Source of the DNA: Selaginella moellendorffii | Taxonomy: Eukaryota > Plantae > Lycopodiophyta | Reading direction: 5' to 3' | Assembly: GCF_000143415.4 (NCBI RefSeq) | Contig: NW_003314314.1 | Location: 1,307,771 to 1,371,770 of the forward strand | DNA length: 64,000 nucleotides | Shown here: positions 1,266-40,800 of the stretch, piece after piece | Layout: each line of letters starts with the position of its first letter | How positions within the stretch are numbered: the first letter of the stretch is position 1 | Notes under the pieces: model-generated | What the model saw: only the letters and a program-made list of their open reading frames with translations | The model's database searches: none | Told to the model about the DNA's origin: nothing | Translations under genes and position numbers: made by a program

Positions 1266-4146
1266 TCTGAAAGTGCAAAAAAGAAGTTAAGACCATATAA
1301 AAAATGATTGGAGAATGGCCTAAATCATAACATACCAAACAACCTCAATAGCATGAGGCCACATGCCATTATTCAAATATGCTATTGACACCCACGTGAA
1401 ATTTTGCATTCACAAAATTGGCATGAGGCCTCATGCCATCTTGATATACACACAGCTGCAAGCAAGTAAAAACATACATGACAATACGCCAGCCATGAAA
1501 TTGCAAGGGCCCAAGATGGCATGTGGCCTCATGCCATTTCTAAATGTGGTCCTAAGCCATTCCATGGTGAACATACCAGGAAGCACAAGTGCCGAATATC
1601 AAGAGGAAGCGGTAGCCACACCAAAGACAGTGCCGCTCGCAACACCGCAACTACTCGTAGCGCCGCTCGCACAAACTGCCACTCGCATAAACTGCCGCTC
1701 GCAATGGCGCTCGCAATGCCGCAACCGCTCATAGACGCATAAACCACAGCCCACAATGCCGCTTACACAAGCAGCGCTCACTGCGCTCAGCGGAACCAAG
1801 AACACGGCGCACAAAAATGATAGACCTAAGAATGAGTTCGAGAATTGAAAAATAACACACGCTTGAATGTCACATCAAATCCTCTGACAAACCAGATCTT
1901 ATGACTCCTCTGACAAATTTCAAACTAAGTAGCTTCTAGACTTTGCTGTCGGAGGTTGAACTTTGTCACATCATGTCCTTGCCTCGATCCAGCTGTGCCA
2001 TGTCAGTGATTCGAACTTTGCCATGCCATGTCAGCGATCCGCGCCAAGATTATTCGCTGTGTAAAGGAATAATTATGCTCTGTGTGTACGTCCATTTATG
2101 GCAATATAAGGCCACACGCCATTCAAAGAATAATGCTAGTCGAGCATTTTTTGGTGCATTTTTGGGTTCAAAATTGCATGAGCCCACACGCTATAAAGTT
2201 TACCTGTACCAAAAATAGAAACAGCTTTATTTACTTGGGAATTTAAGTGGTTGAGGCATTTTTAAACTTACAAACACATGCCCTACTTACATTTCTTTGG
2301 TTGCTTAAAATTCAAAAATATTATAAACCTTTCTTTTTGCATTTTCAATGTTTTCAATTATGGTTTTTGATTTTCGCAGGACCAGCCTAGTAATCTATTT
2401 GCATCCCGTCATGTTTATAGCTAGCTTTCGTTTGTCCCCTTCGCTAGCCTGAGATACATCTGCTCGGCATCTGCCTCTTACAGCATTTGCCCAGAAAGGG
2501 CATCTTTCTTCACGCAGCATTTGCCACATGTTTAGGGTTTAGGGTTTAGCAATTCAGTAACTTGATAAACATGCAAATACAGAACTTGATGCAAAATCCT
2601 TTGATATGTCACAATGCCCTTAGGACCATAAACACATTTCAATAGAGAGGGTCTTTTCATTTTATAACTCCTTACGTAGATCTTGGTGAAACCAGAGTTA
2701 GTGAAGTTAGTTTCTTGTGATCCCACATCTGATTGTGATGTCCCTTTGCAGTGTCGATGGAAAGGTCAATGCACACCAAACTGTAAAATCTTGGAGCAAA
2801 ATAATGGTCGGATCTATGGCAAATGCCCCTGAAACATTGTAAGGTTCGTGTGGTCTCATGTGGTGTCCGATCGAGATGCTTCTTTGTAGGGTCATCAAGA
2901 AAGACATTGTATACCATTCTGTAAAATCTAGTTGCGATCTAACGGTTGGATCTCCAGAAAACTCAAAAAAATCTCGCGCGTGTCAGAATATCCTAGGAAT
3001 ATACTCTTATGTGCCCCTGAAAATGGCATGCGGCCCCACGCGATTCAAGAGATAACGCCACATGACGCCGAGAATTTTTTGGTGCATTTTTTGGGTTCAA
3101 AATTGCATGAGCCCACACGCTATAAAGTTTATCTTTCCCAAATAGAGAAAAGTTTATCTGTGTCATGTGAGGTAGTTACAGTCCTTTGTGCTCGGCATCT
3201 GCCTCTTGCAGCATTTGCACTGAAAGGGAATTTTTCTCCATTCAGCATTTGGCCCTGAAAATGGCATGCGCCCACACGCCATTCAAGGAATAACGCCACA
3301 GGACGCTTGGATTTTTGGGTTTAAAATGTTTAGGGTTTTTTGGGTTTTTTCAAAATATTTTGGGTCCAACGTTTTTTGGGTTTCTTTGGTTCAAAATTGC
3401 ATGAGCCCACACGCTATAATATTGATTTGAGAGAAAAATAGAAACAGATAGAATTTCTTTATTTAGCTAAACATCTGCCATTTTTGGAAATACAAGATGC
3501 TTTGGAATATCCAATCATGCATGGTATAAATATAGCGAGGGTATTAAATGATATCCCAATCATGATCTTTCTTTTGGATTTCGCGTGCATGCAGTCCGAG
3601 GAATGATGACGTTGCGGATTTCTTTTGGATTTTACGTGCTTGCATGCGCATGGCAATCCAGAAATTAATGGTGGCGCCCAAGTCCGAGGAATGATGACGT
3701 GGCGGGATTACCAACCATTGTGACATTTCGCGCGTGTGAGGTTAGGTTTTGCATTTTGCTTCGTACTTGCGCTCGCACACTCGCGCTCGCGCTCGCATCA
3801 CACTCGCGCTCCCGCTCGCATCGCGCTCCCACTCGCGATCACGCTGACTTCTCTACAGGTTTCTCGTGTGCATCGGCGTCCACTCGCGCTTGCATCACAC
3901 TCGCGCTCGCATCGCGCTCGTGTGCATCGGCGTCCACTTCAAGACACACCCAGTTTGTAACTTCGCCGCCAACTCCGCCGCCCACTCCGCCACCCACACG
4001 CAGCCCACTTGGCGTCCCGGGAGATTTCAGCGCCACTCTCCAACTGTAAGTGGCAGAGTAGCCTTGCTGCTACGATCCGCTGCACACACAGTGCACATTC
4101 GCCAGCGAGTCCGGCCTCGATTGTCATGGCCTCCATTCGGCTTCAA

Positions 4147-7100
4147 ATGGTAAGTCTTTTAGGCCAAGTAGAAAATGGCATGAGGCCACATGCCATTCAG
4201 TAGCAACATTGGCATGCACCGATTGGGCTCTCGAGTGCAGTCCGGTTACAGATGGCGTGTAGCCTCACGCCATCTTAGGATGCAGCCTCAAGACATCTGA
4301 TGCAGTGGTGAATGGCGTTTGGCCTCACGTTATTTCCAGCTGCTAGCTTTTCATCTGTCAGCTCTAATTGTTGTGCATTTCTGAACAGGCGAGGAATTGC
4401 GTTCTTCTTCCAGCCACTGTCAATGTGGATGCAGAGAAGGGGGAGGAGCTCACCAGTTGGACTTTCGGGATGGAAGGCGAGGATCTGATGCTGTACAACA
4501 CAGATGGTGGGAGAAAAGAATGCATGGGGATCCTCATCCAAGTGACAGACACTCCATGCAGTTCCATGCAAGAATATGGACTGGCACTTGTGGTAGAGAC
4601 AGCATCCGCCCTCAAGATCCACCTTGCACATCCTAGCGGCTTCCCGGAGGGGGGCAGCGGCTATGAGGAATTCCTAGAGGGAGCTAGGGAGAGGTTGTCT
4701 AGGAGGCCCACAATTTCAAAGACGCTGCGGGTCTATGAAGATCACATGGAATCCACAGACCTCACCTACGGCGATGTTCAAAAACTATATTCCAACATTG
4801 AGCCGTTGAGAGTGCCTCCAGTTCGCGAAGCGAAGGGGAAGGGGGTCGATCTGGAAACTACCCCGAAGCTGAAAAGGGTGGTCAAGCTCAAGCCGACGTC
4901 CGACTCTGCTGCTCCAAAAAAGAAGCTACTCGGTGATGCCATTGCCTCGGGTTCGAACACTACACCCACCAAAAAGAAGAGCCGCAAAGAGCAGAAAGAG
5001 CAAGAAGAGGCAGCAAAAATCGTCGCAGATAATAGTACTTGTTACTATTCCAACAAAGTATATACAATCGACGTGAGCCGTATCGACATCCAAAGCAAAT
5101 ACAACCACAGGCTAGTATCTGATGAGTGGTTGGAGAAACTGAAGCAGAAGATGCTGGCAAGTCCAGTAACACCTGACATCGCAGACGTGATCCCCTACTA
5201 CCAAACAATGAAGGGCAAGACGAGGTTTCCAAACTTGATCAACAGGAAGGTGTTGGACGATTAGAACATCCGGTTCTATGCCGTCTCCGGGCAGCATTCT
5301 AGCTTGGCGATGCAAGAGATAGTTCTGGATATTATGGTGGGCGAGGAGGTGAAGAAAGTCTTCAAGACAAGAGTTGTCCGCCTGATAAAAGGCAACTCGC
5401 CCCTCCGATCTATCATATCCATCTCCCACGCGCAGAATGTCAAGCAAGAAACGTGCTACAAATCGGGTCTGCACGAGACATTGGCACGAACACGGAAGCT
5501 CTGAGTTCAACTGAAGAAGCCACAAAAACTAGGACAAGGACGTGCACTAGCAACTAGCGCCTGGCAGGTAAGCCTCGTTGCATGTGGCATAGCATGTGGC
5601 CTCACGCCATTTCCATTGCAGGAATTCTCGAGTCTTCTCTCGAAAACACTGAGGGTCAATGACACACTCAGCATCCATAACATTCTACTCGCGACAAAAG
5701 TTGTTTTTGACAAATGGGTAGATGTGCTAAGGAGGTACCATGACGGGGAGTTGCTAAACTCAATGGGTGTGGAGGACGGCCGGAAGCCCAATGATTTGAA
5801 GCTCAACGCCTTGCGTTTCTCGCGGTCTCTAGACGACGACGACCTTCTGACAGTGGCTAATGCTCTTCTACGTGGTGAGGTAGTCTTCAACAAGACCAAA
5901 ATGACTCCCGGCCATATTGTGACATACGAGGACTTGTGCACGACTCTGAGAGCTCGTGCGCTATTGAAGGATTGGATCTTCGAGCAAGTGGCCGTGGAGA
6001 GGGTGAGCATCGACACCACGCAAGAGATGATGGAAGAGCTGGAGTTGTCAAATGAAGACATCGACGAGTACGTGAAGGGGGCCCCCAAGTTCATCGATCT
6101 GCTGCGGGATGTCACGAAAAGTAAAGCTGAGAAGTTGGATCAGTATCCAAATTTCATTAAGAGGGATGTCGACCGCCGGCTTCAGAAACAGCTCGACCCC
6201 GCAGCAGAGGCCTATCGAGAACCTTACCGGGTATACGTGAGGATCAAAGGTGGAGGAGCATCGTTTCCCGCGGAGATGAGCAGGTCAAGAGCATCTTTTG
6301 TGTGATGGACTTCACAAACGAAGAGATCACTCATGCAGACGAAGTCAGCTCCATCATTGACTTAATGGTGGGACTTGCGGAGGTGGAATCTTCAGTCCAC
6401 TATATGATCTACGACTCCGAATCCTATCACAAGTTCTGGAAGGCCTTGAACGAGGTGAAGGCTCGGTTGAAAGGCAAGGAGATGCGGGAGATCCATGGGA
6501 TAATGGCTAAGAAGAAGATACTGACGAATGTCTGCATCTTCACACTCGCCCTTGTTATTGGTCCTGCAGCAGAGTGGGACTGGAGTGACTTCCCAGCTTC
6601 GTTCGACAAGGCCGATCGAATTGATCTGAGGGAGGTCAATTTACCCGTGTCTAAGGAACTGAAGACGGCTATGGAGCTTTCGAATCCAGAGAAAGCTCCA
6701 GGTGCAGCATGGGAAATGCTCAGCTGGGTCTTCAACGCAATAGCGGGTGACACCAAGGGCAAATGCGTTGTCGAGTACAACTGCGGCGGACTATTCTTTC
6801 GAGCCGCACTACTCAAGGGTGTCCCGTGGGTTGCGGTGACAAACTCCATTGAAGAGGTGACTTCAATGGAGCATATAATTACAGTTGCCAAAGAAAAACA
6901 GTATCTTCTCTGCGAACCTGGTGAGTACGCACTTTAAGTTTAAATGTTATCTCACAAGCTCTGTATGCAGGAGCGTGGCCACCCCCAGATGCTGAAATGG
7001 CGTTAACAGCTACTGATGTTAGGCCGAGCTCACAACCTGCACAAGGTAAGGTCACGTGAGGCCTCACGCCATTTTGATTATAGATTGTTGTGAATATTCA

Positions 7101-9195
7101 GACACGAGGACTGAAAAGCGCACTGGTGGCGCGTCGAAGAAGGACAAACAGACAAGCAATAGGAAAAAAGGAGGTACAAATTATATTTGCAATGGCGTGT
7201 GGTCTCATGCCATTCCTTGCAGGAGACACTTCTTCAAAGGCAAAACAGGCAAGCACCAGCCAAGCTCAAACTGACAGTGGTCATAAAAAGCGAAAGCACG
7301 TTGGACAGTCGTCGGGATCAGAGGCGTTTGATTTGAAAAGGAAGAAGGGCAACGAAAAGGTGATAGGTAATGCCTCGCGGTTATGGCGTGTGTGCTCATG
7401 CCATTCATTGCAGATCAAGGGCTGAGTGAAAGGAGCCAGTCACCACCTCCTGACTCAGATTCCTATGGCGGACTCCCCTTCCCCAATCTCAATGGAGAGG
7501 TACAATGGATGAGGGATGCTTTTCAAGTTAGGGCCACGTTTTTCTCATCTCGTCGTCTTCGAAGGGTGCAAGAACGTGCAGAAACCATGTTAAGACAGTC
7601 GGGTGAGGATACGGTCCTAGGTCAAGCACTGAAACATGCTATGGATGTCTTGTATTTTGAGATGGAGACTCGGCCAGATGATTTTCCCAAGATGGTCCTG
7701 GAAAAACAAGCCATCCAGCCTGAGCAGCCTATGGAAGAAATGCAAGAGGGGGATGAGGAGCCAGAGAAAGATAATGAGCAGGAAGAGCAGAAGGACGAAG
7801 AGGAGGACAAAGAAGAGGAGGACGAAGAAGAGGAGGACGAAGAGGACTTGGATGGTCCTCACAATGGTGACGATCACAATAACGACGACAACGATGATGA
7901 CGACGATGGCCAGCCTGAGGTGGCCAAAGAGCAGCGGAGGAAGGTCATACAAGACAAACCATCAGGTAAATAATAGTACATCCATTCCTAACCTTTTACC
8001 ATTTCTAACATTGTCCATGTAGGTTGCAGAGCAAATGGTAAGTAGAGATTATTCAGTTGAATTAAGATACAAACTCTAGCCTTTAGTGTCGAGGAAGGAT
8101 AGTGCCAAGCAAGGGTCGAAACGTATGTCCAATCCTTCAGAATCAGCAGTGCGCCCAATAGCAGTTGATGGTAAATACAGTATAGTCGATTCAATGTGCT
8201 AATGAGTTTGTTTTTAGTAGCCAGTAGGGAGGATACCATCTCAATCGAAGGGAGATATTTGGACATGCATATGGATCCGCCAGTGGACTCTACTTGCCTG
8301 CAAGAGTCATCAGAGCTGGTGGAGGCTACTATCCATATCAACGCCAAGCAAGCTGACCACGCTCCACTTGATGTTGCCCATACCACTGAGTCAATCTTGT
8401 CCACGTATCCAACTGACGGTGACCAGGCGCCATTGGACCAAGTTGGTCAAAAGAGACAGATTCACATTAATCACACGGGAGAAACTGCGGGATCTAATAA
8501 TGACCATGCGACACTTAAAACAGAGGGCCGGGTTCAATTTGCAATTGGGAGTTTGGACATCCATGATGCGCCACAATGCATTAACGTTGCTACAGATGAT
8601 GCACGATCAGACGCAAGTAATATTACCATTTGACTTTCTCCTAATGCAGGAGGATTGCTTGACTATGGTCCATGTGAGGGGTAGCAAGCCCATCTTCGTC
8701 AAGCCAGAGGCTGTAGTGATGAACCGGACTGCTAGGTCAAGTGAAATCCTCATCATCGATGACTCGCCGATTAAAACTGCAGCGAACACGCATACATATG
8801 CAGTGCACCCCATCTCTTGCAGTATGGAAACTAGGGAGAAGAAACTGTATGTTCTGGGGGACCTTGCAAAACGGCTTGGAGCGATGGTGATAGAGAACCG
8901 GCCAATCCAGGAGGTGGCTGCAGAAATCAACCAAATGGCAGATGGAACGGTATATCAGAAGCCATTTGATCGGACAGACACCAGTCATCATTTATGGCAT
9001 GTATATTGTCTAGCCAAGCACTATCCGCATCTCCATAATCTGCTCAACCGGATGGGTTCTTCGACCACTGAACATGAGCGTGGACGTATTAAAGAAGAGA
9101 TGGCATTACTATTGGGTTTAAATCCTGATAGTGTGGAGAGTGATGAAATTCCAAGATTATTGTATAGGCGTTGGAGGCAAAAAATAACAATCTGA
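4147..9195 (+). pseudogene. Multi-exon cargo gene (copy A): ParB/Srx-like, degenerate MTase-like, acidic linker and FCP1-like phosphatase regions
   Basis: ORFs 4368-5264, 5616-6305, 6302-6937, 7383-7973 and 8368-9195 are linked by GT-AG introns (4150-4388, 5568-5621, 6921-6970, 7046-7101, 7174-7222, 7367-7413). It has stops and deletions relative to copies B and C. Confidence 0.7.
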
Positions 9196-9613: not shown

Positions 9614-9635
9614 TCCCACTTTAACGAAATAGAGC
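9614..9635. repeat. 22-bp terminal inverted repeat (cargo-gene end, copy A)
   Basis: Exact reverse complement of 20129-20150 and identical to 28117-28138 and 39489-39510. Confidence 0.95.
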
Positions 9636-9784
9636 TTGCTTTTAGTTTACATATTTAGTTTGCCTTTGTTGAGCCCATTCTAAAGAATCCCTCACTAGAT
9701 TCCAAATGTTGAGTCTTTTTGCCATGAATGCCTCCACTGCACGTAACTTTCCATGATACTCGGCCATGCCGACTTCCACAAGAC

Positions 9785-20128: not shown

Positions 20129-20578
20129 GCTCTATTTCGTTAAAGTGGGAATTGTCATTATCCCACTTGTAAAATAAGGTTTCGAAACCTTTATATAGTA
20201 TATAAATATAATAAAATTCAACTGCATTGAGGCACATGCCATTTTATTTTAAACAAGGAAATGTCTACTCAATCACTTCTCCTCCCCCTGCCACTGCTTC
20301 ACCTCTCTCTTCTCCTTGTCATCGTCGTCCAATTTTTTTCCATCCTTTTAATATTGGCTCAGTTGCTCCGAGTCTAGGTGGAGTCCAAGTCCCCATTCAA
20401 TCTTTACTTTCCCCTTATTAATAAAACAACTTCGTAGACTTCCAATAACATGCTGTAACACGCTGTAACACTTCTAGTATAATGCAAATCCTCTCAAAGA
20501 ATTGTCTTTTAATATTAATACAATGGCATGGAACCCCATGCCATAATAAGTTACATTTTTAAATAAATACATGCCATC

Positions 20579-23500
20579 TCAGATTGTTATTTTTTGCCTC
20601 CAACGCCTATACAATAATCTTGGAATTTCATCACTCTCCACACTATCAGGATTTAAACCCAATAGTAATGCCATCTCTTCTCTAATACGTCCACGCTCAT
20701 GTTCAGTGGTCGAAGAACCCATCCGGTTGAGCAGATTATGGAGATGCGGATAGTGCTTGGCTAGACAATATACATGCTATAAATGATGACTGGTGTCTGT
20801 CCGATCAAATGGCTTCTGATATATCGTTCCATCTGCCATTTGGTTGATTTCTGCAGCCACCTCCTGGATTGGCCGGTTCTCTATCACCATCGCTCCAGCC
20901 GTTTTGCAAGGTCCCCCAGAACATACGGTTTCTTCTCCCTAGTTTCCATACTGCAAGAGATGGGGTGCACTGCATATGTTTGCGTGTTCGCTGCAGTTTT
21001 AATCGGCGAGTCATCGATGATGAGGATTTCACTTGACCTAGCAGTCCGGTTCATCACTACAGCCTCTGGCTTGACGAAGATGGGCTTGCTACCCCTCACA
21101 TGGACCATAGTCAAGCAATCCTCCTGCATTAGGAGAAAGTCAAATGGTAATATTACTTGCGTCTGATCGTGCATCATCTGTAGCAACGTTAATGCATTGT
21201 GGCGCATCATGGATGTCCAAACTCCCAATTGCAAATTGAACCCGGCCCTCTGTTTTAAGTGTCGCATGGTCATTATTAGATCCCGCAGTTTCTCCCGTGT
21301 GATTAATGTGAATCTGTCTCTTTTGACCAACTTGCGACCGCAGGCTTTGGAGGGTGCAGTGACATTCGAGGATGAGCCACGCTCATGGGAGAAAAGGACA
21401 CCGTTCAGATCAAAAATGATACAGTACCTTCGCCGTGACTCTGAAATGAAATGCGTCAGCATAAAAAATGGTACAAGTCAATTTTACCATCTACAACATT
21501 AGCGAATGGTGCTCCCGATGGTCGTTGAGAGGGTTTTAGTCGAGGAAACGTGAAGGGCGGAAATACTCTCCTCTGCAATGTGGGGTCAATCGCATCCGAT
21601 GGCGTGTGGGCACATGCCATTTCAGCTGTAGACTCTGGTACAACTGGCTCAACAATGGCATGGGGTGGTTCCGATGGCGTGTGATCACATGCCATTTCAG
21701 CTGGTGCCTCCGTTGGCAAAGTGGACATGACCGAACAGGCAGCAGGGGCGGTGTAGGGAGGTTCCAACGGCGCGTAGTCAGACGATTGGGCACACGTTGA
21801 GTTCGTTGGAAATGAGGATACAACCGGCTCGGCGGCTGGGGCGGCCTCATGCGGGTCCAATGGCGCCTGGTCACCGTCAGTTGGATACGTGGACAAGATT
21901 GACTCAGTGGTATGGGCAGCATCAAGTGGAGCGGATCCATATGCATGTCCAAATATCTCCCTTCGATTGAGATGGTATCCTCCCGTGCTACTAAAAACAA
22001 ACTCATTAGCACATTGAATCGATTATACTGTATTTACCATCAACTGCTATTGAGGAACTAGGACCGATATCACTTGGGCGCACTGCTGATTCTGAAGGAT
22101 TGGACATACGTTTCGACCCTTGCTTGGCACTATCCTTCCTCGACACTAAAGGCTAGAGTTTGTATCTTAATTCAACTGAATAATCTCTACTTACCATTTG
22201 CTCTGCAACCTACATGGACAATGTTAGAAATGGTAAAAGGTTAGGAATGGATGTACTATTATTTACCTGATGGTTTGTCTTGTATGACCTTCCTCCGCTG
22301 CTCTTTGGCCACCTCAGGCTGGCCATCGTCGTCATCATCGTTGTCGTCGTTATTGTGATCGTCACCATTGTGAGGACCATCCAAGTCCTCTTCGTCCTCC
22401 TCTTCTTCGTCCTCCTCTTCTTTGTCCTCCTCTTCGTCCTTCTGCTCTTCCTGCTCATTATCTTTCTCTGGCTCCTCATCCCCCTCCTGCATTTCTTCCA
22501 TAGGCTGCTCAGGCTGGATAGCTTGTTTTTCCAGGACCATCTTGGGAAAATCATCTGGCCGAGTCTCGTTCTCAAAATACAAGACATCCATAGCCTGTTT
22601 TAGTGCGTGACCTAGGACCGTATCCTCACCCGACTGTCTTAACATGGTTTCTGCACGTTCTTGCACCCTTCGAAGACGACGAGATGAGAAAAACGTGGCC
22701 CTGACTTGAAAAGCATCCCTCATCCATTGTACCTCTCCATTGAGATTGGGGAAGGGGAGTCAGCCATAGGAATCTGAGTCAGGAGGTGGTGACTGGCTGC
22801 TTTCACTCAGCCCTTGATCTGCAATGAATGGCATGAGCACACACGCCATAACCGCGAGGCATTACCTATCATCTTTTCATTGCCCTTCTTCTTTTTCGAA
22901 TCAAACGCCTCTGATCCCGACGACTGTCCAACGTGCTTTCGCTTTTTATGACCACTGTCAGTTTGAGCTTGATCTGCAAGAAATGGCATGAGGACCCACG
23001 CAATAACCATGATGCTTTACTTCCTGTCCTTGGAGGCTCTGTCGTGCCTTCCGCATCCTCAGGTGCCTGCTCCTCAATTCCCTTTCGCTTTCGTTTCTTA
23101 TGCGCCCGTTCTACAGAAATAGCATGAGGACATACGCGATAAGCACACAAATGCTTTTACCCTTCCTCCTCTGCCTTGGTCGGTTGTCCATCTCTTTGTC
23201 TACAGCGTCTGAAAGCTGTTTTGCAGGTAGCCTAATTTGAGGTTCACGACGTCTCCTTGGCACTTGAACTGTATATTATTGCATCAACACATGCAACATC
23301 CCATTATATTTTTAAGTTACCTTTCATAAAGTTTTCCATTGGTTCAACTCGTTCCCCTGAAATACAAACTTAGATAAGTGCATGGGGCCATATGTCATGA
23401 TCGTACCTGTTTCGGAACTCTCCTTATCACTCTCCGAGGCCTCCCCCTCCTCCACTGGAGGCACGTTGTTCCGTTCGATTTCCTCGACGCGATCTGCAAG

Positions 23501-24444
23501 AACATTAGTTAATTGCATGGGGCCACACGCCATCAAACCTTCAGGTTCTTGTCGTGAGGTTTGCGCTGCTTGCCCTAGTCTCTTTGGAATTTGAGCTGCA
23601 AGAAGCAATGGCATGAAAATTCACGTATAACAAAAATGATTGGTACCTCTCGTCCGTTGTACTTGGTTGGTGCTTGCCTGTTTTGCCTTTGAAGAAGTGT
23701 CTCTTGCAAGGAATGGCATGAGACCACACGCCATTGCAAATATAATTTGTACCTCCTTTTTTCCTATTGCTTGTCTGTTTGTCCTTCTTCGATGCACCAC
23801 CAGTGCGCTTTTCAGTCCTCGTGTCTGAATATTCACAACGATCTATAATCAAAATGGCGTGAGGCCTCACGTGACCTTACCTTGTGCAGGTTGTGAGCTC
23901 GGCCCAACATGGGTATCTTCAACAGTAGCTGTTAACGCTGTTTCAGCATCTGGGGGTGGCCATGCTCCTGCATACAGAGCTTGTGAGATAACATTTAAAC
24001 TTAAAGTGCGTACTCACCAGGTTCGCAGAGAAGATACTGTTTTTCTTTGGCAACTGTAATTATATGCTCCATTGAAGTCACCTCTTCAATGGAGTTTGTC
24101 ACCGCAACACACGGGACACCCTTGAGTAGTGCAGCTCGAAAGAATAGTCCGCTGCAGTTGTACTCAACAACGCATTTGCCCTTGGAGTCGGAAGCAGGTG
24201 ACCCACCCGCTATTGCGTTGAAGACCCAGCTGAGCATTTCCCATGCTGCACTTGGAGCTTTCTCTGGATTCGAAAGCTCCATAGCCGTCTTCAGTTCCTT
24301 AGGCACGGGTAAATTGACCTCCCTCAGATCAATTCGATCGGCCTTATCGAACGAAGCTGGGAAGTCACTCCAGTCCCACTCTGCTGCAGGACCAATAACA
24401 AGGGCGAGTGTGAAGATGCGGACATTCGTCGGTATCTTCTTCTT
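20579..24444 (-). pseudogene. 3' half of cargo gene (copy B) with the most complete FCP1/NIF HAD phosphatase domain
   Basis: CIIFDLNGVL, LGVWTSM and LIIDDSPIK motifs (ORF 20884-21462). It contains many short introns and exons missing from copy A. Confidence 0.75.
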
Positions 24445-26509
24445 CTTCAAGAGGTTTGTCGAGACATGTAGCGAGCAGCAACCACATAAAACCCGCCTCT
24501 TGGAAAATGGAACTCGAGACACCCAACGAGTTCTCCCTTCCATGTATACAAAGGTTGCCATATTGGAAGATGTGAATCGGGAACTCCAGAATAATGGCTA
24601 TAGGAAGCTGAGCCAATCTAGATTTAGTAGATTGTGGAGCAACAGGTTCAGGGATGTGAGTATAGGAAAGTACTCCTGCTTTTCAAAGTGTGACGAGTGC
24701 ATTGCTATCAAAATGGCTTTGTCGAAGAATTCTTGCATCGCTCAAGAGCGAGAGACGTTGGTTAGAAGGCGGCTCGACCACAACATCGAGCAGAGAAGCT
24801 GCAGGATTGCATATTATCATAACAGGATTCTCTCCATGGAGAGACCTGACTCTTACCTCTGCATCATCCACGACAAAATGGACTAAAAAAAGACGTGCTT
24901 ACCTCGACTCAATCCTGCCCCCAAGGCAATCTCTTCATCCATGCAGCTGCCTGTGTCTCTGTTTGGCATAATCGCTCATGGGCATGGTGCCCAGAACTAT
25001 GGGAACTTCTTTGTACCTCTATGGGGTGGCGGGGGTGCAAACATGATGATTGCGTCCCTAGCAAAACACTTAAGGTCTCTGCAAAGTGCGCAGACTGAGC
25101 TGAACGGCCAACCCTTGTATAAGGCCCTTGTCGATCGAACCCCATACAGGGTTCAGCTGGAGGAGGAGCAAAGGCTTGCAGTATCGCGTGGGGCCCCATG
25201 CCATCCCAGTGAATATGTTGACCGTCAGATTGTAGGGTTATCACGTGAGGCCTCATGCCATTCCGACGAGGCTGGTCGCCCGGTGAATGCACAGCCTCAT
25301 CCAAACGAAGCAGAATCTCAAGGAAGTTCTTGCGGCCGATGTGGCCTTCCACCCCATCTTCTGCTCCAAACAGACAATGCTGGCAGTGAGAACAAAAACA
25401 TGTACGTCTTCGCGTACTTGGCGATGCTTGTTGCCAAAGGCATATTTGAAACGGTTATACTTGGCTTTCTCATGGTTGGGCACACTCATGAAGACGTCGA
25501 TGCCATGTTCAGTCACCTGGCAGAGTCCCTCCGGCGATCCAATGTCCTCACCCTCCCACAACTCTACGATGAATTCCAAAATTGCATCAAAGGCACTGTT
25601 GAAGCTGCACTTGTGACAAAGGTTCCAGACTTTAAGGGGTTTGTAAGAGGCTACATCAGGGACGGATCCGAAACGCTGATTGGCCACTCCAAGCCTCTTC
25701 AGTTTCATTTCAGCATGCGTGACGGTGCTCCAGTGATGAGGTACAAGATGAGAGAATGGGACATAGTGTGGCTGCCAGTGGACGGCATTGAACTCTTCAA
25801 GAGAGATCCCATAACTGGGGAACCTATGATTCCTCAGGGTTCCCCACGGCCGATGCACCCGGATGGACTCAAAGACTAGGAAAGTATAGTGGCCGGGATT
25901 AGACAGCATATTGTCTTCTGGAAGAGGGGGTTGGTGTTTGGTGGAGAATCCTATTTTCAGAGGTGCAAGCCTTTGCTTGAATATTGGGAGAAGATTATAT
26001 CTGCTATCCAAAATGGGCCAGTTGTATATGAAGAATTGGAAGAGTCCTTTTGGCCAGAACCCAGAGCACTATATAGTAGCGGAACAATGTCCTCTGGAAA
26101 TGCAGTGACAGATAACGATGTTAAGGATCACTATTGTGGGCCGAGGAACAAGAAGCCGGATTCAGCATTCAATCCAGTACAGGTCTACAAAGGAATGGTC
26201 GTGCTTGTCAGACCCAGTATTAAAAAACAAATGATATGGGTGGGGCGCTGCATCACTGATGCAGAGGAGGATGCGGAAACTAACTCCTTCAATGTAACTG
26301 TGGAGTGGTTCAAGCCAAGTTCCGGATATACGAAGGATTGCCTAGAAAAGAGATGGGTGCTGAATCCAAGGGATCCCAGCATGAGCATATCGGTGGATAA
26401 TGTTGTGCATGGTTGGATGCGGAAGCAGAGTGCCACCATCACCTTGCCAGACCATGCAAGAGATGCAGCAAGAGCATTCATAACCCGGGTTCAAGGTGAG
26501 ATTCATTAA
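24445..26509 (+). pseudogene. Sola-like DDD transposase core and C-terminus (copy B), two in-frame stops
   Basis: SKCDEC, IIHDKMD, QTDNAGSENKN and FLMVGHTHEDVD motifs lie in one frame across ORFs ending 24886, 25879 and 26509. Confidence 0.85.
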
Positions 26510-28184
26510 TATTCCTTTACTAAGTTTCTAATGTATTTTATTTCAAGGTGAACAATTCGAATCTGAATCAGAGGAGGCGTGATGGCATGTGGCCTTACGC
26601 CATTCCTAGGTGAGATGATACAAATAACAAGTATAAATTCTTAGTTGTTCTAGCAAATCTTACTTAAAGTTCAAGGTGAACAAGCCGAATATGAATTCAT
26701 CGGATTGTTATAACAAATTGCGAGGTGATGGCATGAGGCGATACGCCATTTGAGAGTGGTAGCCATTCCTATATGAGGTGAGTGAAATATTTATTAGAAA
26801 TACCTCATTCAATTGTGCACTTCTAAGTCTTGGTCCACTCAATACTGTTTGCATGTTTCTATTTTAATTCTTTCTCTAAAATGTTATTTAGCATGTGGCT
26901 TCATGCCATTGCTCTCCACAATCATGCATTGAATTTTTCTATCCTTGCATAATACTTCTCTATATATATAGCATGTGCACACATGTGATATGGTTCATTA
27001 GGCCTGATATAGTGTGTGAGGTAAAACAAAGATGATGTGACATATGCATTTACCAATCACATGTGCATAAATCTAATAATATGGCGTGTGGCCCATATTA
27101 ATGGCATATAAACCCATATTGTGGGCTTATATGCTTTATGTACCATCATTCCCTTGCAGTGTGTGTGTTGGTTTCCTTTTATAACACAACGAACTCCATA
27201 TTTTAGGGTGAAGAGCGTTCTCATGGCAAGCACAAAATCTGTAAGTGAGGCAGAAAAGGAGACGGAGAAGGAGATAGGTGAAGATGTAGAATATATAAGT
27301 CTTCCAAACTCCCCGTACTATACTCCAGGTGATCATTTTTCTGAACAAACGGCAACATTAACAACTATTGAGAATGCCCCAGTAACGTCAGAGACAACAA
27401 TTCAAAGCAAAACAACTGACCCGGAGAAGGATGATAGTACCGCTGAGAGTACCAAACAGGAGGTGTCCACTAGCGCTTAGGCTTATAATGGCGTGTGCCC
27501 TCATGCCATTTACTTGATCACCAAATACCTTTTTCCCTTTGCACTAGTATATCTTAATACCGGTCTGAGAAATAGAATGGCATGTGCCCTCAGGCCTTTT
27601 ACTAAATCACCTTTGAAAGAAATGCAAGCCTCTATGTCGTAAAAAAAAGGTCCTAGAGAAATTCCTTAATAATATGAATGTTATTTAGTTTCATGAAAAT
27701 ACACTAAGGGTCAAATGAGTTAAATGACTTCTCCAGACTAGCAATGCCTCTTGCTACACCTTCACAATTAGATTCGTTAGAAAAAGATAATATTGAATAA
27801 TATCTAAATGTTCTCACCATTAAGTTATATGTCTGGCTAATAGGAATGACGTTCATCTTGGAAAGCTCACCACACGCTCAATGAACAAACAAATAGTGTG
27901 TGCGCGCATGCCATCGCTCTTCTTTAGCTTCAGATTCGGCTTGTTCACCTTGACAATGAGATTTATTATACAACCAGATGGACTCAGTCTGGACACAAAG
28001 TCACCGCGCTAGTCACCATGCCCTAGATATGTCTAGCCCCTGGACAAAAAACATATAATTTCACGTCATTTTCAAATACTTGAAAATTTGTACCTAGTCC
28101 CATTTTACTGAATAAATCCCACTTTAACGAAATAGAGCATAGCACCAATAAAAGTCGGACTGAGGAACAGCTCCAATACCAAGT

Positions 28185-29936: not shown

Positions 29937-30139
29937 AGTGGCTAACTCCATTGGTCATTTCCTTGTCAGTGATAGTTGGATGTTGTATGAGTTGTAGTGC
30001 ATTTGCATTAGACAAAGAGGTTATCCTAATTTATTTAAGCTGATGTATTTCTTATAAAGTGTGAACACCAAAAAAAATTTCTAAAGTTGTTTCATTGCCG
30101 GTGGTCTAGAGTAGAGTATGCATCAACAAGGATGTCAAT

Positions 30140-31352: not shown

Positions 31353-34300
31353 CCCTTCTTCCTTTTCGAATCAAACGCCTCTGATCCCGACGACTGTCCA
31401 ACGTGCTTTCGCTTTTTATGACCACTGTCAATTTGAGCTTGGCTGGTGCTTGCCTGTTTTGCCTTTGAAGAAGTGTCTCCTGCAAGGAATGGCATGAGAC
31501 CACACGCCATTGCAAATATAATTTGTACCTCCTTTTTTCCTATTGCTTGTCTGTTTGTCCTTCTTCGACGCGCCACTAGTGCGCTTTTCAGTCCTCATGT
31601 CTGAATATTCACAACAATCTATAATCAAAATGGCGTGAGGCCTCACGTGACCTTACCTTGTGCAGGTTGTGAGCTCGGCCCAACATGGGTATCTTCAACA
31701 GTAGCTATTAACGCCGTTTCAGCATCTGGGGGTGGCCACGCTCCTGCATACAGAGCTTGTGAGATAACATTTAAACTTAAAGTGCGTACTCACCAGGTTT
31801 GCAGAGAAGATACTATTTTTCTTTGGCAACTGTAATTATATGCTCCATTGAAGTCACCTCTTCAATGGAGTTTGTCACCGCAACACACGGGACACTCTTG
31901 AGTAGTGCAGCTCAAAAGAATAGTCCGCCGCAGTTGTACTCGACAACGCATTTGCCCTTGGAGTCGGAAGCAGGTGACCCACCCGCTATTGCGTTGAAGA
32001 CCCAGCTGAGCATTTCCCATGCTGCACCTGGAGCTTTCTCTGGATTCGAAAGCTCCATAGCCGTCTTCAGTTCCTTAGGCACGGGTAAATTGACCTCCCT
32101 CAGATCAATTCGATCGGCCTTGTCGAACGAAGCTGGGAAGTCACTCCAGTCCCACTCTGCTGCAGGACCAATAACAAGGGCGAGTGTGAAGATGCGGACA
32201 TTCGTCGGTATCTTCTTCTTAGCCATTATCCCATGGATCTCCTGCATCTCCTTGCCTTTCAACTGAGCCTTCACCTCGTTCAAGGCCTTCCAGAACTTGT
32301 GATAGGATTCGGAGTCGTAGATCATATAGTGGACTGAAGATTCCACCTCTGCAAGTCCCACCATTAAGTCAATGATGGAGCTGACTTCGTCTGCATGAGT
32401 GATCTCCTCGTTTGTGAAGTCCATCACACAAAAGATGTTCTTGACCTGCTCATCTCCGCGGGAAATGATGCTCCTCCACCTTTGATCCTCATCCGAATTC
32501 ACATATACCCGGTAAGGTTCTCGATAGGCCTCTGCTGCGGGGTCGAGCTGTTTTTGAAGCCGGCGGTCGACATCCCTCTTAATGAAATTTGGATACTGAT
32601 CCAACTTCTCAGCTTTATTTTTTCGTGGCATCCCGCAGCAGATCGATGAACTTGGGGGCCCCCTTCACGTACTCGTCGATGTCTTCATTTGACAACTCCA
32701 GCTCTTCCATCATCTCTTGCGTGGTGTCGACGCTCACCCTCTCCACGGCCACTTGCTCGAGGATCCAATCCTTCAATAGCGCACAAGCTCTCAGAGTCGT
32801 GCACAAGTCCTCGTATGTCACAATATGGCCGGGAGTCATTTTGGTCTTGTTGAAGACTACCTCACCACGTAGAAGAGCATTAGCCACTGTCAGAAGGTCG
32901 TCGTCGTCTAGAGACCGCGAGAAACGCAAGGCGTTGAGCTTCAAATCATTGGGCTTCCGGCCGTCCTCCACACCCATTGAGTTTAGCAACTCCCTGTCAT
33001 GGTACCTCCTTAGCACATCTACCCATTTGTCAAAAACAACTTTTGTCGCGAGTAGAATGTTATGGATGCTGAGTGTGTCATTGACCCCCAGTGTTTTCGA
33101 GAGAAGACTCGAGAATTCCTGCAATGGAAATGGCGTGAAGCCACATGCTATGCCACATGCAACGAGGCTTACCTGCCAGGCGCTAGTTGCTAGTGCACGT
33201 CCTTGTCCTGGTTTTTGTGGCTTCTTCAGTTGAACCCAGAGCTTTCGTGTTCGTGCCAATGTCTCGTGCAGACCCGATTTGTAGCACGTTTCTTGCTTGA
33301 CATTCTGCGCGTGGGAGATGTATATGATAGATCAGAGGGGCGAATTGCCTTTTATCAGGCGGACAACTCTTGTCTTGAAGACTTTCTTCAGCTCCTCGCC
33401 CACCATAATATCCACAACTATCTCTTGCATCGCCAAGCTAGAATGCTGCCCGGAGACGGCATAGAACTGGATGTTCTGATCGTCCAACACCTTCCTCTTG
33501 ATCAAGTTTGGAAACCTCGTCTCGCCCTTCATTGTTCGGTAGTAGGGGATCACGTCTGCGATGTCGGGTGTTACTGGACTTGCCAGCATCTTCTGCTTCA
33601 GTTTCTCCACCCACTCATCAGATACTAGCCTGTGGTTGTATTTGCTTTGGATGTCGATACGGCTCACATCGATTGTATATACTTTGTTGGAATAGTAACA
33701 AGTACTATTATCTGCGACGATTTTTGCTGCCTCTTCTTGCTCTTTCTGCTCTTTGCGGCTCTTCTTTTTGGTGGGTGTAGTGTTCGAACCCGAGGCAATG
33801 GCATCACCAAGTAGCTTCTTTTTTGGAGCAGGAGAGTCGGACGTCGGCTTGAGCTTGACCACCCTTTTCTGCTTCGGGGTAGTTTCCAGATCGACCCCCT
33901 TCCCCTTTGCTTCGCGAACTGGAGGCACTTTCAACGGCTCAATGTTGGAATATAGTTTTTGAACATCGCCGTAGGTGAGGTCCGTGGATTCCATGTGATC
34001 TTCATAGACCCGCAGCGTCTTTGAAATTGTGGGCCTCCTGGACAACCTCTCCCTAGCTCCCTCTAGGAATTCCTCATAGCCGCTGCCCCCCTCCGGGAAG
34101 CCGCTAGGATGTGCAAGGTGGATCTTGAAGGCGGACGCTGTCTCTACCACAAGTGCTAGTCCATATTCTTGCATGGAACTGCATGGAGTGTCTGTCACTT
34201 GGATGAGGATCCCCATGCATTCTTTTCTCCCACCATCTGTGTTGTACAGCCTCAGATCCTTGCCTTCCATCCCGAAAGTCCAACTAGTGAGCTCCTCCCC

Positions 34301-34593
34301 CTTCTCTGCATCCACATTGACAGTGGCTGGAAGAAGAACGCAATTCCTCGCCTGTTCAGAAATGCACAACAATTAGAGCTGACAGATGAAAAGCTAGTAG
34401 CTGGAAATAACGTGAGGCCACACGCCATTCACCACTGCATCAGATGTCTTGAGGCTGCATCCTAAAATGGCGTGAGGCTACACGCCATCTGTAACCGGAC
34501 TGCACTCGAGAGCCCAATCGGTGCATGCCAATGTTGCTACTGAATGGCATGTGGCCTCATGCCATTTTCTACTTGGCCTAAAAGACTTACCAT
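31353..34593 (-). pseudogene. 5' two-thirds of cargo gene (copy C) with ParB-like and MTase-like regions
   Basis: ORFs 33332-34372, 32615-33259 and 31912-32631 match copy A. Frameshift near 32620. Confidence 0.75.
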
Positions 34594-35056: not shown

Positions 35057-37881
35057 TGGCCTCCACAAGTGCGACGCATGTTCCCTCCGTGGATCTTAAG
35101 AACTGTGCTACATGGATTCAGGCAAAGGTGTTTCTAAACAACCCCGAGGGGGAGGTGGTAGCTAAGGGCTTAGCCACAGTTGTCAATCCAAGAGATGCGG
35201 TTGCTAATCAAGAATTGGGCTGAGATGATATTGGAGTTGCGATTTTAGAGGTTGTTGACACAGAAGAAAACAGTCTGACTATTGGAAGCATTGTGCGGTG
35301 GAAATTGAGGCACTTAGTGTTTGAGAATGTGAAGGATTCACAATCAAACACCACTACAACTGATGATAGAACATCTCTTCATGGGAAAAGAAAGTACACC
35401 TTCCTAAAGCGCAGCCAAAGGGATCTGAGCAACGAACCGAAAAGGCAGAAAATGGCGATGGAGGTTCAAATGGTCTCGACAGTTGCTTGTTGCAAGAGGA
35501 GGTGCTGTCAACATGCTGATTGGGATGCTATTGAAGAGGAGAGAGCAAGATACAAGACATTGTCCTGGAAGGCAGCTCGCAATTTTGTGTATGAGGCGTT
35601 ACGGTCATCTATTGATGCTTCAGAACATCAGGTGGGGGGCATGGTCTTCCAGAGGGGTTTGGTCTGCATGAAGGCATGGAGAATCATTTATGGAGTCCCT
35701 CGAACCACATTCTACAGAATCAAAACTGAGTTCAAGGAACAAAGGGTTCAACAGGCAGTCCATGGGAACGACGGTACGCACAAAACCAGGGGTCATGTTG
35801 TATATGGAGAGGCAATCTTCAAGAGGTTTGTCGAGACATGTAGCGAGCAGCAACCACATAAAACCCGCCTCTTGGAAGATGGATCACGAGACACCCAACG
35901 AGTTCTCCCTTCCATGTATACCAAGGGGGCCATATTGGAAGATGTGAATCGGGAACTCCAGAGTAATGGCTACAGGAAGCTGAGCCAATCTAGATTTAGT
36001 AGATTGTGGAGCAACAGGTTCAGGGATGTGAGTATAGGAAAGTACTCCAGCTTTTCAAAGTGTGACGAGTGCACTGCTATCAAAATGGCTTTGTCGAAGA
36101 ATTCTTGCAGCGCTCAAGAGCGAGAGACGTTGGTTAGAAGGCGGCTCGACCACAACATCGAGCAGAGAAGCTGCAGGACTGCATATTATCATAACAGGAT
36201 TCTCTCCATAGAGAGACCTGACTCTTACCTCTGCATCATCCACGACAAAATGGACCAGAAAAAGACGTGCTTACCTCGACTCAATCCTGCCCCCAAGGCA
36301 ATCTCTTCATCCATGCAGCTGCCTGTGTCTCTGTTTGGCATAATCGCTCATGGGCATGGTGCCCAGAACTATGGGAACTTCTTTGTACCTCTATGGGGTG
36401 GCGGGGGTGCAAACATGATGATTGCGTCCCTAGTAAAACACTTAAGGTCTCTGCAAAGTGCGTAGATTGAGCTGAACGGCCAACCCTTGCATAAGGCCCT
36501 TGTCGATCGAACCCCATACAGGGTTCAGCTGGAGGAGGAGCAAAGGCTTGCAGTATCGCGTGGGGCCCCATGCCATCCCAGTGAATATGTTGGCCGTCAG
36601 ATTGTAGGGTTATCACGTGAGGCCTCATGCCATTCCGACGAGGCTGGTCGCCCGGTGAATGCACAGCCTCATCCAAACGAAGTAGAATCTCAAGGAAGTT
36701 CTTGCGGCCCATGTGGCCTTCCACCCCATCTTCTGCTTCAAACAGACAATGCTGGCAGTGAGAACAAAAACGTGTACGTCTTCACGTACTTGGCAATGCT
36801 TGTTGCCAAAGGCATATTTGAAACGGTTACACTTGGCTTTCTCATGGTTGGGCACACTCATGAAGACGTCGATGCCATGTTCAGTCACCTGGCAGAGTCC
36901 CTCCGGCGATCCAATGTCCTCACCCTCCCACAACTCTACGATGAATTCCAAAATTGCATCAAAGGCACTGTTGAAGCTGCACTTGTGACAGAGGTTCCAG
37001 ACTTTAAGGGGTTTGTAAGAGGCTACATCAGGGACGGATCCGAAACGCTGATTGGCCACTCCAAGCCTCTTCAGTTTCATTTCAGCATGCGTGACGGTGC
37101 TCCAGTGATGAGGTACAAGATGAGAGAATGGGACATAGTGTGGCTGCCAGTGGACGGCATTGAACTCTTCAAGAGAGATCCCATAACTGGGGAACCTATG
37201 ATTCCTCAGGGTTCCCCACGGCCGATGCACCCGGATGGACTCAAAGACCAGGAAAGTATAGTGGCCGGGATTAGACAGCATATTGCCTTCTGGAAGAGGG
37301 GGTTGGTGTTTGGTGGAGAATCCTATTTTCAGAGGTGCAAGCCTTTGCTCGAATATTGGGAGAAGATTATATCTGCTATCCAAAATGGGCCGGTTGTATA
37401 TGAAGAATTGGAAGAGTCCTTTTGGCCAGAACCCAGAGCACCAGATAGTAGCGGAACAATGTCCTCTGGAAATGCAGTGACAGATAACGATGTTGAGGAT
37501 CACTATTGTGGGCCGAAGAACAAGAAGCCGGATTCAGCATTCAATCCAGTACAGGTCTGCAAAGGAATGGTCGTGCTTGTCAGACCCAGTAATAAAAAAC
37601 AAATGATATGGGTGGGGCGTTGCATCACTAATGCAGAGGAGGACGCGGAAACTAACTCCTTCAATGTAATTGTGGAGTGGTTCAAGCCAAGTTCCAGATA
37701 TACGAAGGATTGCCTAGAAAAGAGATGGGTGCTGAATCCAAGGGATCCTAGCATGAGCATATCGGTGGATAATGTTGTGCATGGTTGGATGCGGAAGCAG
37801 AGTGCCACCATCACCTTGCCAGACCATGCAAGAGATGCAGCAAGAGCATTCATAACCCTGGTTCAAGGTGAGATTCATTAA
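35057..37881 (+). pseudogene. Sola-like DDD transposase (copy C), nearly complete
   Basis: Same-frame ORFs 35293-36465 and 36487-37881 are separated by one TAG. CxxC-H motif plus catalytic D (HDKMD), D (TDNA-ENKN) and D (GHTHEDVD). 5' deletion of about 250 bp relative to copy A. Confidence 0.85.
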
Positions 37882-40800
37882 TATTCCTTTACTAAGTTTC
37901 TAATATATTTTATTTCAAGGTGAACAATTCGAATCTGAATCAGAGGAGGCGTGATGGCATGTGGCCTTATGCCATTCCTAGGTGAGATGATACAAATAAC
38001 AAGTATAAATTCTTAGTTGTTCTAGCAAATCTTACTTAAAGTTCAAGGTGAACAAGCCGAATATGAATTCATCGGATTGTTATAACAAATTGCAAGGTGA
38101 TGGCATGAGGTGATACGCCATTTGAGAGTGGTAGCCATTCCTATATAAGGTGAGTGAAATATTTATTAGAAATACCTCATTCAATTGTGCACTTCTAAGT
38201 CTTGGTCCACTCAGTACTGTTTGCATGTTTCTATTTTAATTCTTTCTCTAAAATGTTATTTAGCATGTGGCTTCATGCCATTGCTCTCCACAATCATGCA
38301 TTGAATTTTTCTATCCTTGCATAATACTTCTCCATATATATAGCATGTGCACACATGTGATATGGTTCATTAGGCCTGATATAGTGTGTGAGGTAAAACA
38401 AAGATGATGTGACATATGCATTTACCAATCACACGTGCATAAATCTAATAATATGGCGTGTGGCCCATATTAATGGCACATAAACCCATATTGTGGGCTT
38501 ATGTGCTTTATGTACCATCATTCCCTTGCAGCTTGTGTGTTGGTTTCCTTTTATAACACAACGAACTCCATATTTTAGGGTGAAGAGCATTCTCATGGCA
38601 AGCACAAAATCTGTAAGTGAGGCAGAAAAGGAGACGGAGAAGGAGATAGGTGAAGATGTAGAATATATAAGTCTTCCAAACTCCCCGTACTATACTCCAG
38701 GTGATCATTTTTCTGAACAAACGGCAACATTAACAACTATTGAGAATGCCCCAGTAACGTCAGAGACAACAATTCAAAGCAAAACAACTGACCCGGAGAA
38801 GGATGATAGTACCGCTGAGAGTACCAAACAGGAGGTGTCCACTAGCGCTTAGGCTTATAATGGCGTGTGCCCTCATGCCATTTACTTGATCACCAAATAC
38901 CTTTTTCCCTTTGCACTAGTATATCTTAATACCGGTCTGAGAAATAGAATGGCATGTGCCCTCAGGCCTTTTACTAAATCACCTTTGAAAGAAATGCAAG
39001 CCTCTATGTCGTAAAAAAAAGGTCCTAGAGAAATTCCTTAATAATATGAATGTTATTTAGTTTCATGAAAATACACTAAGGGTCAAATGAGTTAAATGAC
39101 TTCTCCAGACTAGCAATGCCTCTTGCTACACCTTCACAAATAGATTCGTTAGAAAAAGATAATATTGAATAATATCTAAATGTTCTCACCATTAAGTTAT
39201 ATGTCTGGCTAATAGGAATGACGTTCATCTTGGAAAGCTCACCACACGCTCAATGAACAAACAAATAGTGTGTGCGCGCATGCCATCGCTCTTCTTTAGC
39301 TTCAAATTCGGCTTGTTCACCTTGACAATGAGATTTATTATACAACCAGATGGACTCAGTCTGGACACAAAGTCACCGCGCTAGTCACCATGCCCCAGAT
39401 ATGTCTAGCCTCTGGACAAAAAACATATAATTTCACGTCATTTTCAAATACTTGAAAATTTGTACTTAGTCCCATTTTACTGAATAAATCCCACTTTAAC
39501 GAAATAGAGCTTAAGTAGCTAGTACAATAGGTAGGAACGTTAACAAGGGAACTTAACTAAGGCTAATGCAGTGGTGGTTGGATAGACGAGATAAACTTGC
39601 AAATTAGAAATGAAAGATTTATGGTTTACAATTTGATATCGGAGTCTTTTCCTCAATTCTAATGAAGGATAGAGGCAAATTGCTAAAAGATGGCTAAGGT
39701 AAGGTATAAGTGAACCAAGGCAGAGATGGAACATCCTCTAGAGATGGAGCCTCTGATCAAACAAGAAGCTATAAATGAGGAATTTTTGTATGATAAGGAT
39801 GTGAGTGAGCATACCTTCAAACAAGAGTTTGGTGGTGAGGTTTGGTCATCCAAGGCTCAATTGGATGCTTTAAAAGGAAAATTAGCACAGATTAATGCCC
39901 TACTGGAGACCCTTGTTCGCAATTTAAAGTGTGATAAGAAGTGAAAGAAAAGGCAAAAAACAGCAAATGCTGGTAGTGTAGAAGGCATAGATCCCTTGGC
40001 AGGGACTGAGGCAAAACCAAATAAGGTCAAACAAATTGAAGTGGAATTAGTCCCTCAAGAAATTCCTAAGTACAAACCAAAGCCCTCACCAGTCTTCAAG
40101 GGAATGAATGACTATAAGTTGATAGAGGAGTGGTTTTACAATATAGAGGACAACTTTCGAGTGTTGTGATTACCAAGCTTGAAAAGGGTCCCATATGCAA
40201 AACCATACTTAGTAGATAACACTAAATCTTGGTGGAGAACAATAGAGGCCAACAAAGGACTAGTGGCCACTTGGGAAGTGATGAAGGTGAAGATCCATGT
40301 AACTTATGTGCCTTTGAATGTTACTCTCTATTTAAGGGACAAACTGAGTAGACTGAAGCACACCGAAACCATTCAAGAGTATATGAATGTGTTTATGGCC
40401 AAGAGGATTCTTATCATGGATATAGGTAATATAGACATATTCCATGCCTTCATATCAAGCTTATAGACCTGGGCTTAGGGCGAGGTGATGCATTAGAACC
40501 TGACTAACTATAAGGAATCTTTAGATGCAGCTATTATGGTGCATTTTGATGATAACTTGTGAAAGGGGAACACAACAAAGTTAAAATCCATGTTCAACAA
40601 AGGAGTCTAACCAAGAGGGACATATAATAAAAAAAAATTTAGGAGGAGTTTCTCTAAGAATGAGTCTTTAGGGTTTTGGAAAGATAGATCTGGTGGCCAA
40701 AGAGCAAGTACGTGGGGGATTTAGGTAAAAAGGGATAAACCCTTTAATAAAAAAATGAAGTTTGCTAATAGTGCAAGAAACAACGTATGTTTCAATTATG

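Follow-up and report, generated by a model that had tools for sequence, protein, structure and literature searches.

Transposons that carry, beside the transposase, an accessory gene whose product acts or is proposed to act on the element itself have been described in algae and in Arabidopsis, and they are the closest known systems to the two-gene element that we describe here from a 64,000-nucleotide stretch of the Selaginella moellendorffii genome (contig NW_003314314.1, positions 1,307,771 to 1,371,770 of the forward strand; the whole stretch is called the window, and positions are counted from its first letter). Sola1-1_Ec32 of the brown alga Ectocarpus (21.5 kb) carries, on the strand opposite the transposase, an accessory gene with a ParB-like domain and an N4/N6 methyltransferase, and the main text of PMC12477816 proposes that its product binds and modifies its own element. 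The Plavaka transposon PAG3 of Bostrychia also has a ParB-like accessory gene, with inverted-repeat arrays proposed as its sites in the available text of 10.1101/2025.02.11.637652. In VANDAL21 of Arabidopsis, according to the available text of PMC5735166, the motifs of the accessory protein VANC21 are concentrated in introns, intergenic and terminal regions; VANDAL elements differ in which motifs they have gained or lost, and tandem repeats go along with differences in the exon/intron structure of the accessory gene. VANDAL is named in the available text of 10.1101/2025.02.11.637652 as the sole proven case of a self-binding accessory protein, the algal ParB-type cases being proposed only.

The Selaginella element is a terminal-inverted-repeat (TIR) DNA transposon with two genes: a DUF7869 transposase and a second gene, here called the cargo, which lies inside the TIRs on the opposite strand and points away from the transposase. 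A 22-bp dyad, ATGGCRTG-N6-CAYGCCAT, recurs along it. A preliminary description of the window had placed one such palindrome just upstream of the 3' splice site in nearly every short intron of the cargo gene, and had offered three explanations: introns as carriers that keep binding sites regularly spaced, motif-bearing units that created the introns, or an RNA hairpin that controls splicing. The observation is real but overstated. With moderate confidence, and from sequence comparison, we read the palindrome as a family-specific dyad to which the element's own cargo protein, with its predicted ParB fold, likely binds; by binding the copies along the element, the cargo would mark it for anti-silencing or mobilisation. 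Introns may be the only unconstrained space inside the gene, which would explain why copies accumulate in them.

The likeness to Sola1-1_Ec32 lies in the architecture, both being large DNA transposons with a ParB-like accessory gene (here by its modelled N-terminal domain) opposite the transposase. The main text of PMC12477816 does not speak of palindromes and mentions no intronic sites, and the element described here further differs by a linker with 14 introns, a NIF-like end and methyltransferase motifs that look degenerate. Plavaka PAG3, as its available description has it, combines an EnSpm/Plavaka transposase and a 2OG-oxygenase effector with tandem arrays adjoining the gene, whereas the copies here are dispersed and lie inside introns. 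VANDAL21, as far as PMC5735166 describes it in its available text, is Mutator-like; its motif is short and not palindromic, its protein is unrelated, and experiments have demonstrated both binding and demethylation, whereas the present system is known from sequence alone. The two share a family-specific motif that is enriched in introns and elsewhere in non-coding sequence, but a DUF7869 transposase and a ParB/Srx-fold cargo take the place of a Mutator transposase and a VANC-family protein. The design is thus already published for algal transposons and VANDAL, and the additions here are the intron placement and the branch-point overlap described below. No paper joining ParB transposon cargo, palindromic sites, introns and a branch point was found in a search without most subscription papers, and the supplements of the two algal papers may show intronic copies.

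Self-BLAST delimits three copies of the element in the window, A (1-9637), B (20129-28138) and C (31353-39510), which diverge by about 2% (155 differing letters in 7919 aligned, 124 of them transitions) and all contain stops or frameshifts. The 22-bp TIRs of copy B match each other perfectly, at 20129..20150 (plus strand, cargo end) and 28117..28138 (minus strand, transposase end). Contigs of sequencing run X2 leave the element at 20127/20129 and have a loose end at 28138; they exit into differing flanks and represent several dispersed copies. The same run covers the whole element and not the local single-copy genes, as expected for a high-copy repeat in a shallow DNA run, its depth not being equal to copy number. 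Members of the Sola superfamily make a 4-bp AT-rich target site duplication; the flanks of copy B are AT-rich but not identical, copy B being rearranged and copies A and C each lacking one end. Copy B has an internal deletion, whose junction at 24444 fuses the 3' half of the cargo gene to that of the transposase, and sequence contigs have loose ends on both sides of this junction.

Allowing up to four mismatches, a scan for the dyad gave 58 matches in the window, 57 of them within the three element copies (25.8 kb) and one in the remaining 38.2 kb; in viral contigs the pattern yielded isolated matches only. Between 22800 and 23900 there are 8 copies; 300 first-order resamples gave 0.14 on average and never more than 2, and a chance origin of this cluster is excluded. 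When each element part is taken once, 35 non-redundant copies remain. Introns hold 12 of them in 990 bp (12.1 per kb), flanks 19 in 4921 bp (3.9 per kb), transposase coding sequence 2 in 3090 bp (0.65 per kb) and cargo exons 2 in 5256 bp (0.38 per kb). Introns are strongly enriched relative to cargo exons (P 2e-8) and, as the preliminary description had asked to be checked, mildly so relative to other non-coding DNA (P 0.003), both tests counting related copies as independent. With 23 of the 35 copies outside introns, the motif belongs to the element and not to the introns. Nine copies occupy the region between the divergent transposase and cargo genes (1287..4125, copy A; unstranded), seven lie in the 3' flank of the transposase up to the TIR (37882..39510, copy C; unstranded), two perfect ones are read in frame within a predicted cargo exon (21599..21695, minus strand), and two more fall in the transposase reading frame (25183..25261, plus strand), at a place where homologues carry a variable insert. 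The loop at 25183-25261 is longer than in homologues and might conceal a 48-nt in-frame intron.

The cargo gene is laid out intact in its 5' half in copy A (4126..9195, plus strand), where a start codon, intron 1, the ParB/Srx-fold domain and intron 2 follow one another. Its 3' half is seen in copy B (20580..24444, minus strand), where the end of a methyltransferase-like region is followed by a low-complexity linker divided by 14 phase-1 introns and by a last exon (20580-21440) that is NIF-like (Pfam NIF, E=5.5e-6); this half is disrupted by one nonsense codon and frameshifts. In the homologue P0061, a ParB-like domain is joined straight to a NIF domain. The front domain, folded from copy C (33335..33700, minus strand) with 19 homologues, reached a mean pLDDT of 87 and is predicted to have the ParB/Srx fold: all 8 top VIA matches belong to the ParB/Srx clan (Z 6.1-9.2, rmsd 2.4-4.2 over 78-86 residues), as do the top Foldseek rows (E 4.5e-3 and weaker, with none under E 0.001), and ParB, Noc, KorB, PadC, sulfiredoxin and SbnI are among the structural matches. 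The Atlas assigns the cargo to DUF3723 at 0.95. A HMMER search gave 22 homologues, and a word-indexed search for longer ones gave none; one of the 22, P0049 (E 2.8e-7), has at its end a fold like that of N6_N4_Mtase (TM ~0.7 to PF01555 clusters).

Bacterial ParB binds a palindrome through a helix-turn-helix, binds CTP and slides, and has an arginine in its GxxR motif. The cargo resembles the bacterial ParB-parS and Noc-NBS systems (7ol9, 7bm8, 6sdk) in the fold of the N-terminal domain and in its dispersed palindromic DNA sites; it differs from them in that no ParA accompanies it, no helix-turn-helix is shown in it, and the GxxR arginine is absent, the invariant word being GQH followed mostly by S or T. 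These last two differences weigh against our reading, and so do several further points. A shared fold shows no function. The methyltransferase segment of the copy itself had no Pfam, PHROG, PADLOC, PDB or fold match (single-sequence model, pLDDT 42) and shares only a 14-residue match with P0049, so the methyltransferase label rests on the homologue. Beside the relatives of the transposase on contigs L001 and L002, no palindrome recurs within 4.3 and 2.5 kb, respectively. The independence assumed in both enrichment tests does not hold for related copies, and the count placed a motif-free 118-nt intron of the cargo 5' untranslated region (UTR) under flank; three of its intron boundaries were off by a single base, which left the numbers unchanged. 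Lastly, copy B has a 694-bp segment with introns d-i (22968..23661, minus strand) that neither copy A nor the deeper X2 contig contains. Losing it removes 399 coding nt (133 codons) and six introns without shifting the frame; the segment is bounded by 4-nt microhomologies, and X2 depth is 74 for the variant without it and 5 for the variant with it; since the deeper-covered variant has lost six linker introns, the dense intron array is not required for spreading.

The introns themselves we infer to be real, ordinary spliceosomal introns of host size. Linker introns a to m are 13 GT-AG segments of 45-57 nt, and the exons between them (87, 72, 57, 57, 87, 36, 108, 90, 108, 552, 15 and 108 nt) are all multiples of three. 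Across exons 0-12 the spliced frame has one stop, at 22762, where X2 and X19 contigs carry a different base from the window, compared with 25-35 stops per frame unspliced; a fourteenth intron, n, was read from the same spliced-frame display. A generic-matrix splice parser, untrained on the cargo gene, recovered 9 of the 13 introns exactly and 3 on one side; it missed intron c, the acceptor of which is lost in copy B (copy A has an intact AG, 7174-7222), and added one intron that bypasses the stop. Introns contain 32-43% T and exons 7-24%, and predicted host introns are of similar size (44-58 nt). The position of intron 2 also appears to be shared: GQH is present in 19 of the 22 homologues, and 17 extend as far as the aligned column, where 13 have Val. 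Twelve stop no more than 30 residues on, as would be expected of gene calls that run into an intron. These 12 distant homologues (20-33% identical) therefore appear to share an intron there, as judged from protein ends and not from homologue DNA, and P0055 and P0049 continue in register into the exon after it.

Transcript data bear little on the matter. One raw RNA-seq run placed 1 of 9,211,280 reads on 20000-28300 and 78 (77 of them partial fits) on the control stretch 46000-64000. No intron joint of the cargo gene was found in four runs that do not cover the local host genes either, and since the RNA run fails to cover those genes the absence of joints is uninformative. An X19 contig, from a run of uncertain kind, crosses intron j unspliced, which speaks against splicing of that intron.

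Within these introns the motif is frequent and its position is less uniform than first described. The eight copy-B introns listed in the preliminary description were recovered as GT-AG segments within 0-4 nt, each with a motif of 0-4 mismatches, and so were the copy-A motifs at 5568-5621, 7051, 7192 and 7383 and the three in 4150-4388. A palindrome in nearly every short intron holds for 8 of the 9 predicted introns of 22815-23880; in the cargo gene as a whole, 9 of the 15 short introns have one (at most 4 mismatches), introns a, k, l, m and n being without one and g having only a decayed one. Placement just upstream of the 3' splice site applies to 6 of the 9 copies, which end 8-12 nt before the intron's 3' end, and not to those of b, e and f, which start 5-8 nt after the donor. 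The supposed regular spacing is not borne out, gaps being 96-258 bp in the cluster and 1076-1462 bp elsewhere in the same gene; the idea of introns as carriers of binding sites fits best of those offered, without the regularity and with most sites lying elsewhere.

On the minus strand of copy B, intron a (23968..24017) has no motif. Introns b (23825..23880, 56 nt; 3 mismatches) and e (23494..23538, 45 nt; with a separate branch-like word) have the motif 5 nt past the donor, and f (23357..23406, 50 nt) has a decayed one with 4 mismatches 8 nt past it. A perfect motif stands 9 nt short of the 3' end in c (23704..23752, 49 nt) and j (22819..22865, 47 nt), as does one with 1 mismatch in i (22974..23020, 47 nt); the motif of h (23111..23160, 50 nt) has 3 mismatches and stops 8 nt short of the end, and that of d (23596..23646, 51 nt) has a decayed left arm and 4 mismatches and stops 12 nt short. 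Intron g (23269..23320, 52 nt), not listed in the preliminary description, holds a shortened, decayed dyad with 6 mismatches, and k (22210-22266), l (22146-22194), m (21991-22037) and n (21441-21487) are motif-free. In copy A (plus strand), intron 1 (4150-4388) carries three motifs and intron 2 (5568-5621) one.

An intron of about 50 nt would leave room for the motif only immediately after the donor or near its 3' end. In the second position a YTCAY word, made up of the end of the spacer and the right arm with its A at -15 to -19, is found in all six 3'-placed copies; it may double as the branch point, and this doubling would account for the fixed distance between motif and acceptor. At that motif position only 12 of 46 orientations of the non-intron copies have YTCAY; in the same window of the intron, YTNAY is present in 4 of the 5 motif-free cargo introns, and two of the three introns with a 5'-placed motif have a separate branch-like word. 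The evidence for a motif that doubles as branch point is weak, however: the six 3'-placed copies are related, and among host introns YTNAY at -14 to -20 occurs in only 5 of 17 (the 18 predicted in the window minus one doubtful prediction). The branch-point-like word supplied by the motif is a new detail. If confirmed, the overlap would mean that one sequence codes for both DNA binding and splicing. A stronger version of our reading, a land-plant ParB/parS-like system in which the cargo loads on private 22-bp palindromes that are fused with the branch points of its own introns, is doubtful; were it true, one word would be at once a DNA docking site and a splicing signal, which would lock the sites in place, and a hairpin or bound protein might tune the splicing of the cargo gene.

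The reader of the dyad could also be the transposase or a TnpA-like product, with the copies helping to pair the ends or to activate the element, a tentative alternative that survives better than the others and that we nevertheless think unlikely. The transposase (35224..37881 in copy C, plus strand, with one internal stop) matches DUF7869 (PF25273) at 148 and 135 bits (cut-off 26), a domain carried by 45 of 46 homologues, the named ones mostly from liverworts. Its front gives a weak Transposase_23 match (E 0.0066, below the cut-off), and the two terminal flanks hold 10 of the 35 copies. According to the available text of 10.64898/2026.08.24.746577, transposases and TnpA serve as sequence-specific activators where motifs cluster; in that account, however, TnpA binds termini, whereas most copies here lie inside the element, at distances of up to several kb from a TIR. 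A related transposase (45% identity) on the metagenome contig L003 is accompanied by 11 copies of a different long palindrome, 7 of them ahead of the gene in a 47-bp tandem array, which also fits the family-specific site of our main reading. It has its own palindrome with no cargo visible on the short contig, as a transposase reader would allow; the inverted-repeat arrays in the available text of 10.1101/2025.02.11.637652, on the other hand, accompany a ParB gene in another superfamily, Plavaka. The L003 palindromes stand at 49-355, 674 and 2836-2977, and three of them come after an AG|GT at which the reading frame of the transposase breaks off, and may lie in an intron of that gene. Viral contigs yielded no relative of the transposase, and no literature on DUF7869 was found in a search that left out most subscription papers.

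A binding site for the cargo and an RNA hairpin predict different patterns in the arms. If the intronic copies were hairpins that hide the branch point and tune the splicing of the cargo mRNA, which we regard as improbable, the arms would be expected to covary. They do not, which argues against a selected hairpin: Watson-Crick pairs between the arms number 213 in all copies (217.7 for permuted arms) and 70 in intron copies (71.8), compensatory double changes 1 of 7 and 0 of 1, and G-U pairs are not favoured over A-C pairs (22 versus 20 overall, 9 versus 7 in introns). Arm deviations in introns are more frequent in the left arm (14) than in the right (6), with the stem broken in d, f and h, and 23 copies lie outside introns. 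In favour of a hairpin, the branch-like A is predicted to be paired in 5 of the 6 3'-placed copies (P unpaired 0.00-0.05), so that a stem would cover it, and the long intron 1 folds better than shuffles (z -4.1); of the 9 motif-bearing short introns only c (z -2.8) and j (z -1.8) do so by about 2 SD. The splicing hairpin of the preliminary description is therefore weakly disfavoured. Across the 70 half-sites one T is invariant and a C is kept in 67, its change to T, a wobble that RNA would tolerate, occurring once; the spacer is often symmetric, with W-G-G in each half. Conservation in these alignments is base-specific and not pairing-specific, the pattern of a site that would be read base by base by a dimeric protein.

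That the intronic copies are a neutral by-product, one motif-bearing intron having been tandemly duplicated and its copies kept without selection, is comparably improbable. In its favour, all 14 linker introns are in phase 1, compared with 1 of the 18 predicted host introns, six of them are dispensable, and neighbours are alike: the 5' flanks of the six 3'-class introns are 0.49 alike, rising to 0.69 between c and d and 0.71 between i and j, with 0.34 among host introns. The excess is modest, since the same flanks are 0.41 alike to host introns. The intron arms are nevertheless better kept (0.80 identical, partly as a result of the selection of matches) than these flanks, while exon likeness is gone, and copies occur in at least 5 unrelated contexts, in frame in both genes. 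The phase-1 linker introns were probably multiplied by old local duplication or conversion with the motif carried along and retained. A point against this origin is that no exon paralogy was significant over 78 exon pairs (best p 0.009), so that exon duplication would follow from phase and intron flanks only. Introners, mobile motif-bearing units that would have made the introns, share with the cargo introns a set of several short introns of common layout and some flank similarity, but they can be dismissed as highly improbable and are largely refuted, the motif being absent from all 18 predicted host introns of the window, phase uniform, end-to-end identity lacking, intron 2 apparently shared in position by 12 of 17 distant homologues, the introns confined to one transposon gene and the motif mostly outside them, and land plants being without introners in the survey of PMC9860276, as far as its available text goes.

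If the cargo does read the dyad, the 35-copy profile supplies a precise, testable site for the proposal of transposon self-recognition, and protein-site co-evolution would be open to study since the relative on L003 has a different site. A chromatin modifier that recognises a specific sequence, and whose specificity can be swapped, would be useful as an epigenome tool as well.

The surroundings of the element are repeat-rich eukaryotic DNA. A probable intron of the cargo 5' UTR, at 3741-3858, contains short CG-rich tandem repeats and has no motif. Another repeat family, marked by long 11-12-bp tandem arrays, has three copies, at 9785-11468, 28184-29937 and 44535-46252, and remnants of retroelements lie at 16142-17800, where RNase H (RVT_3) is matched with E 2.5e-9. 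Two host genes occupy 52345-59399. One encodes a pyruvate kinase (Pfam PK) and has 2 predicted introns; the other, a WD-repeat gene with about 16 predicted introns and a weak WD40 match, we take to resemble a flagellar dynein subunit.

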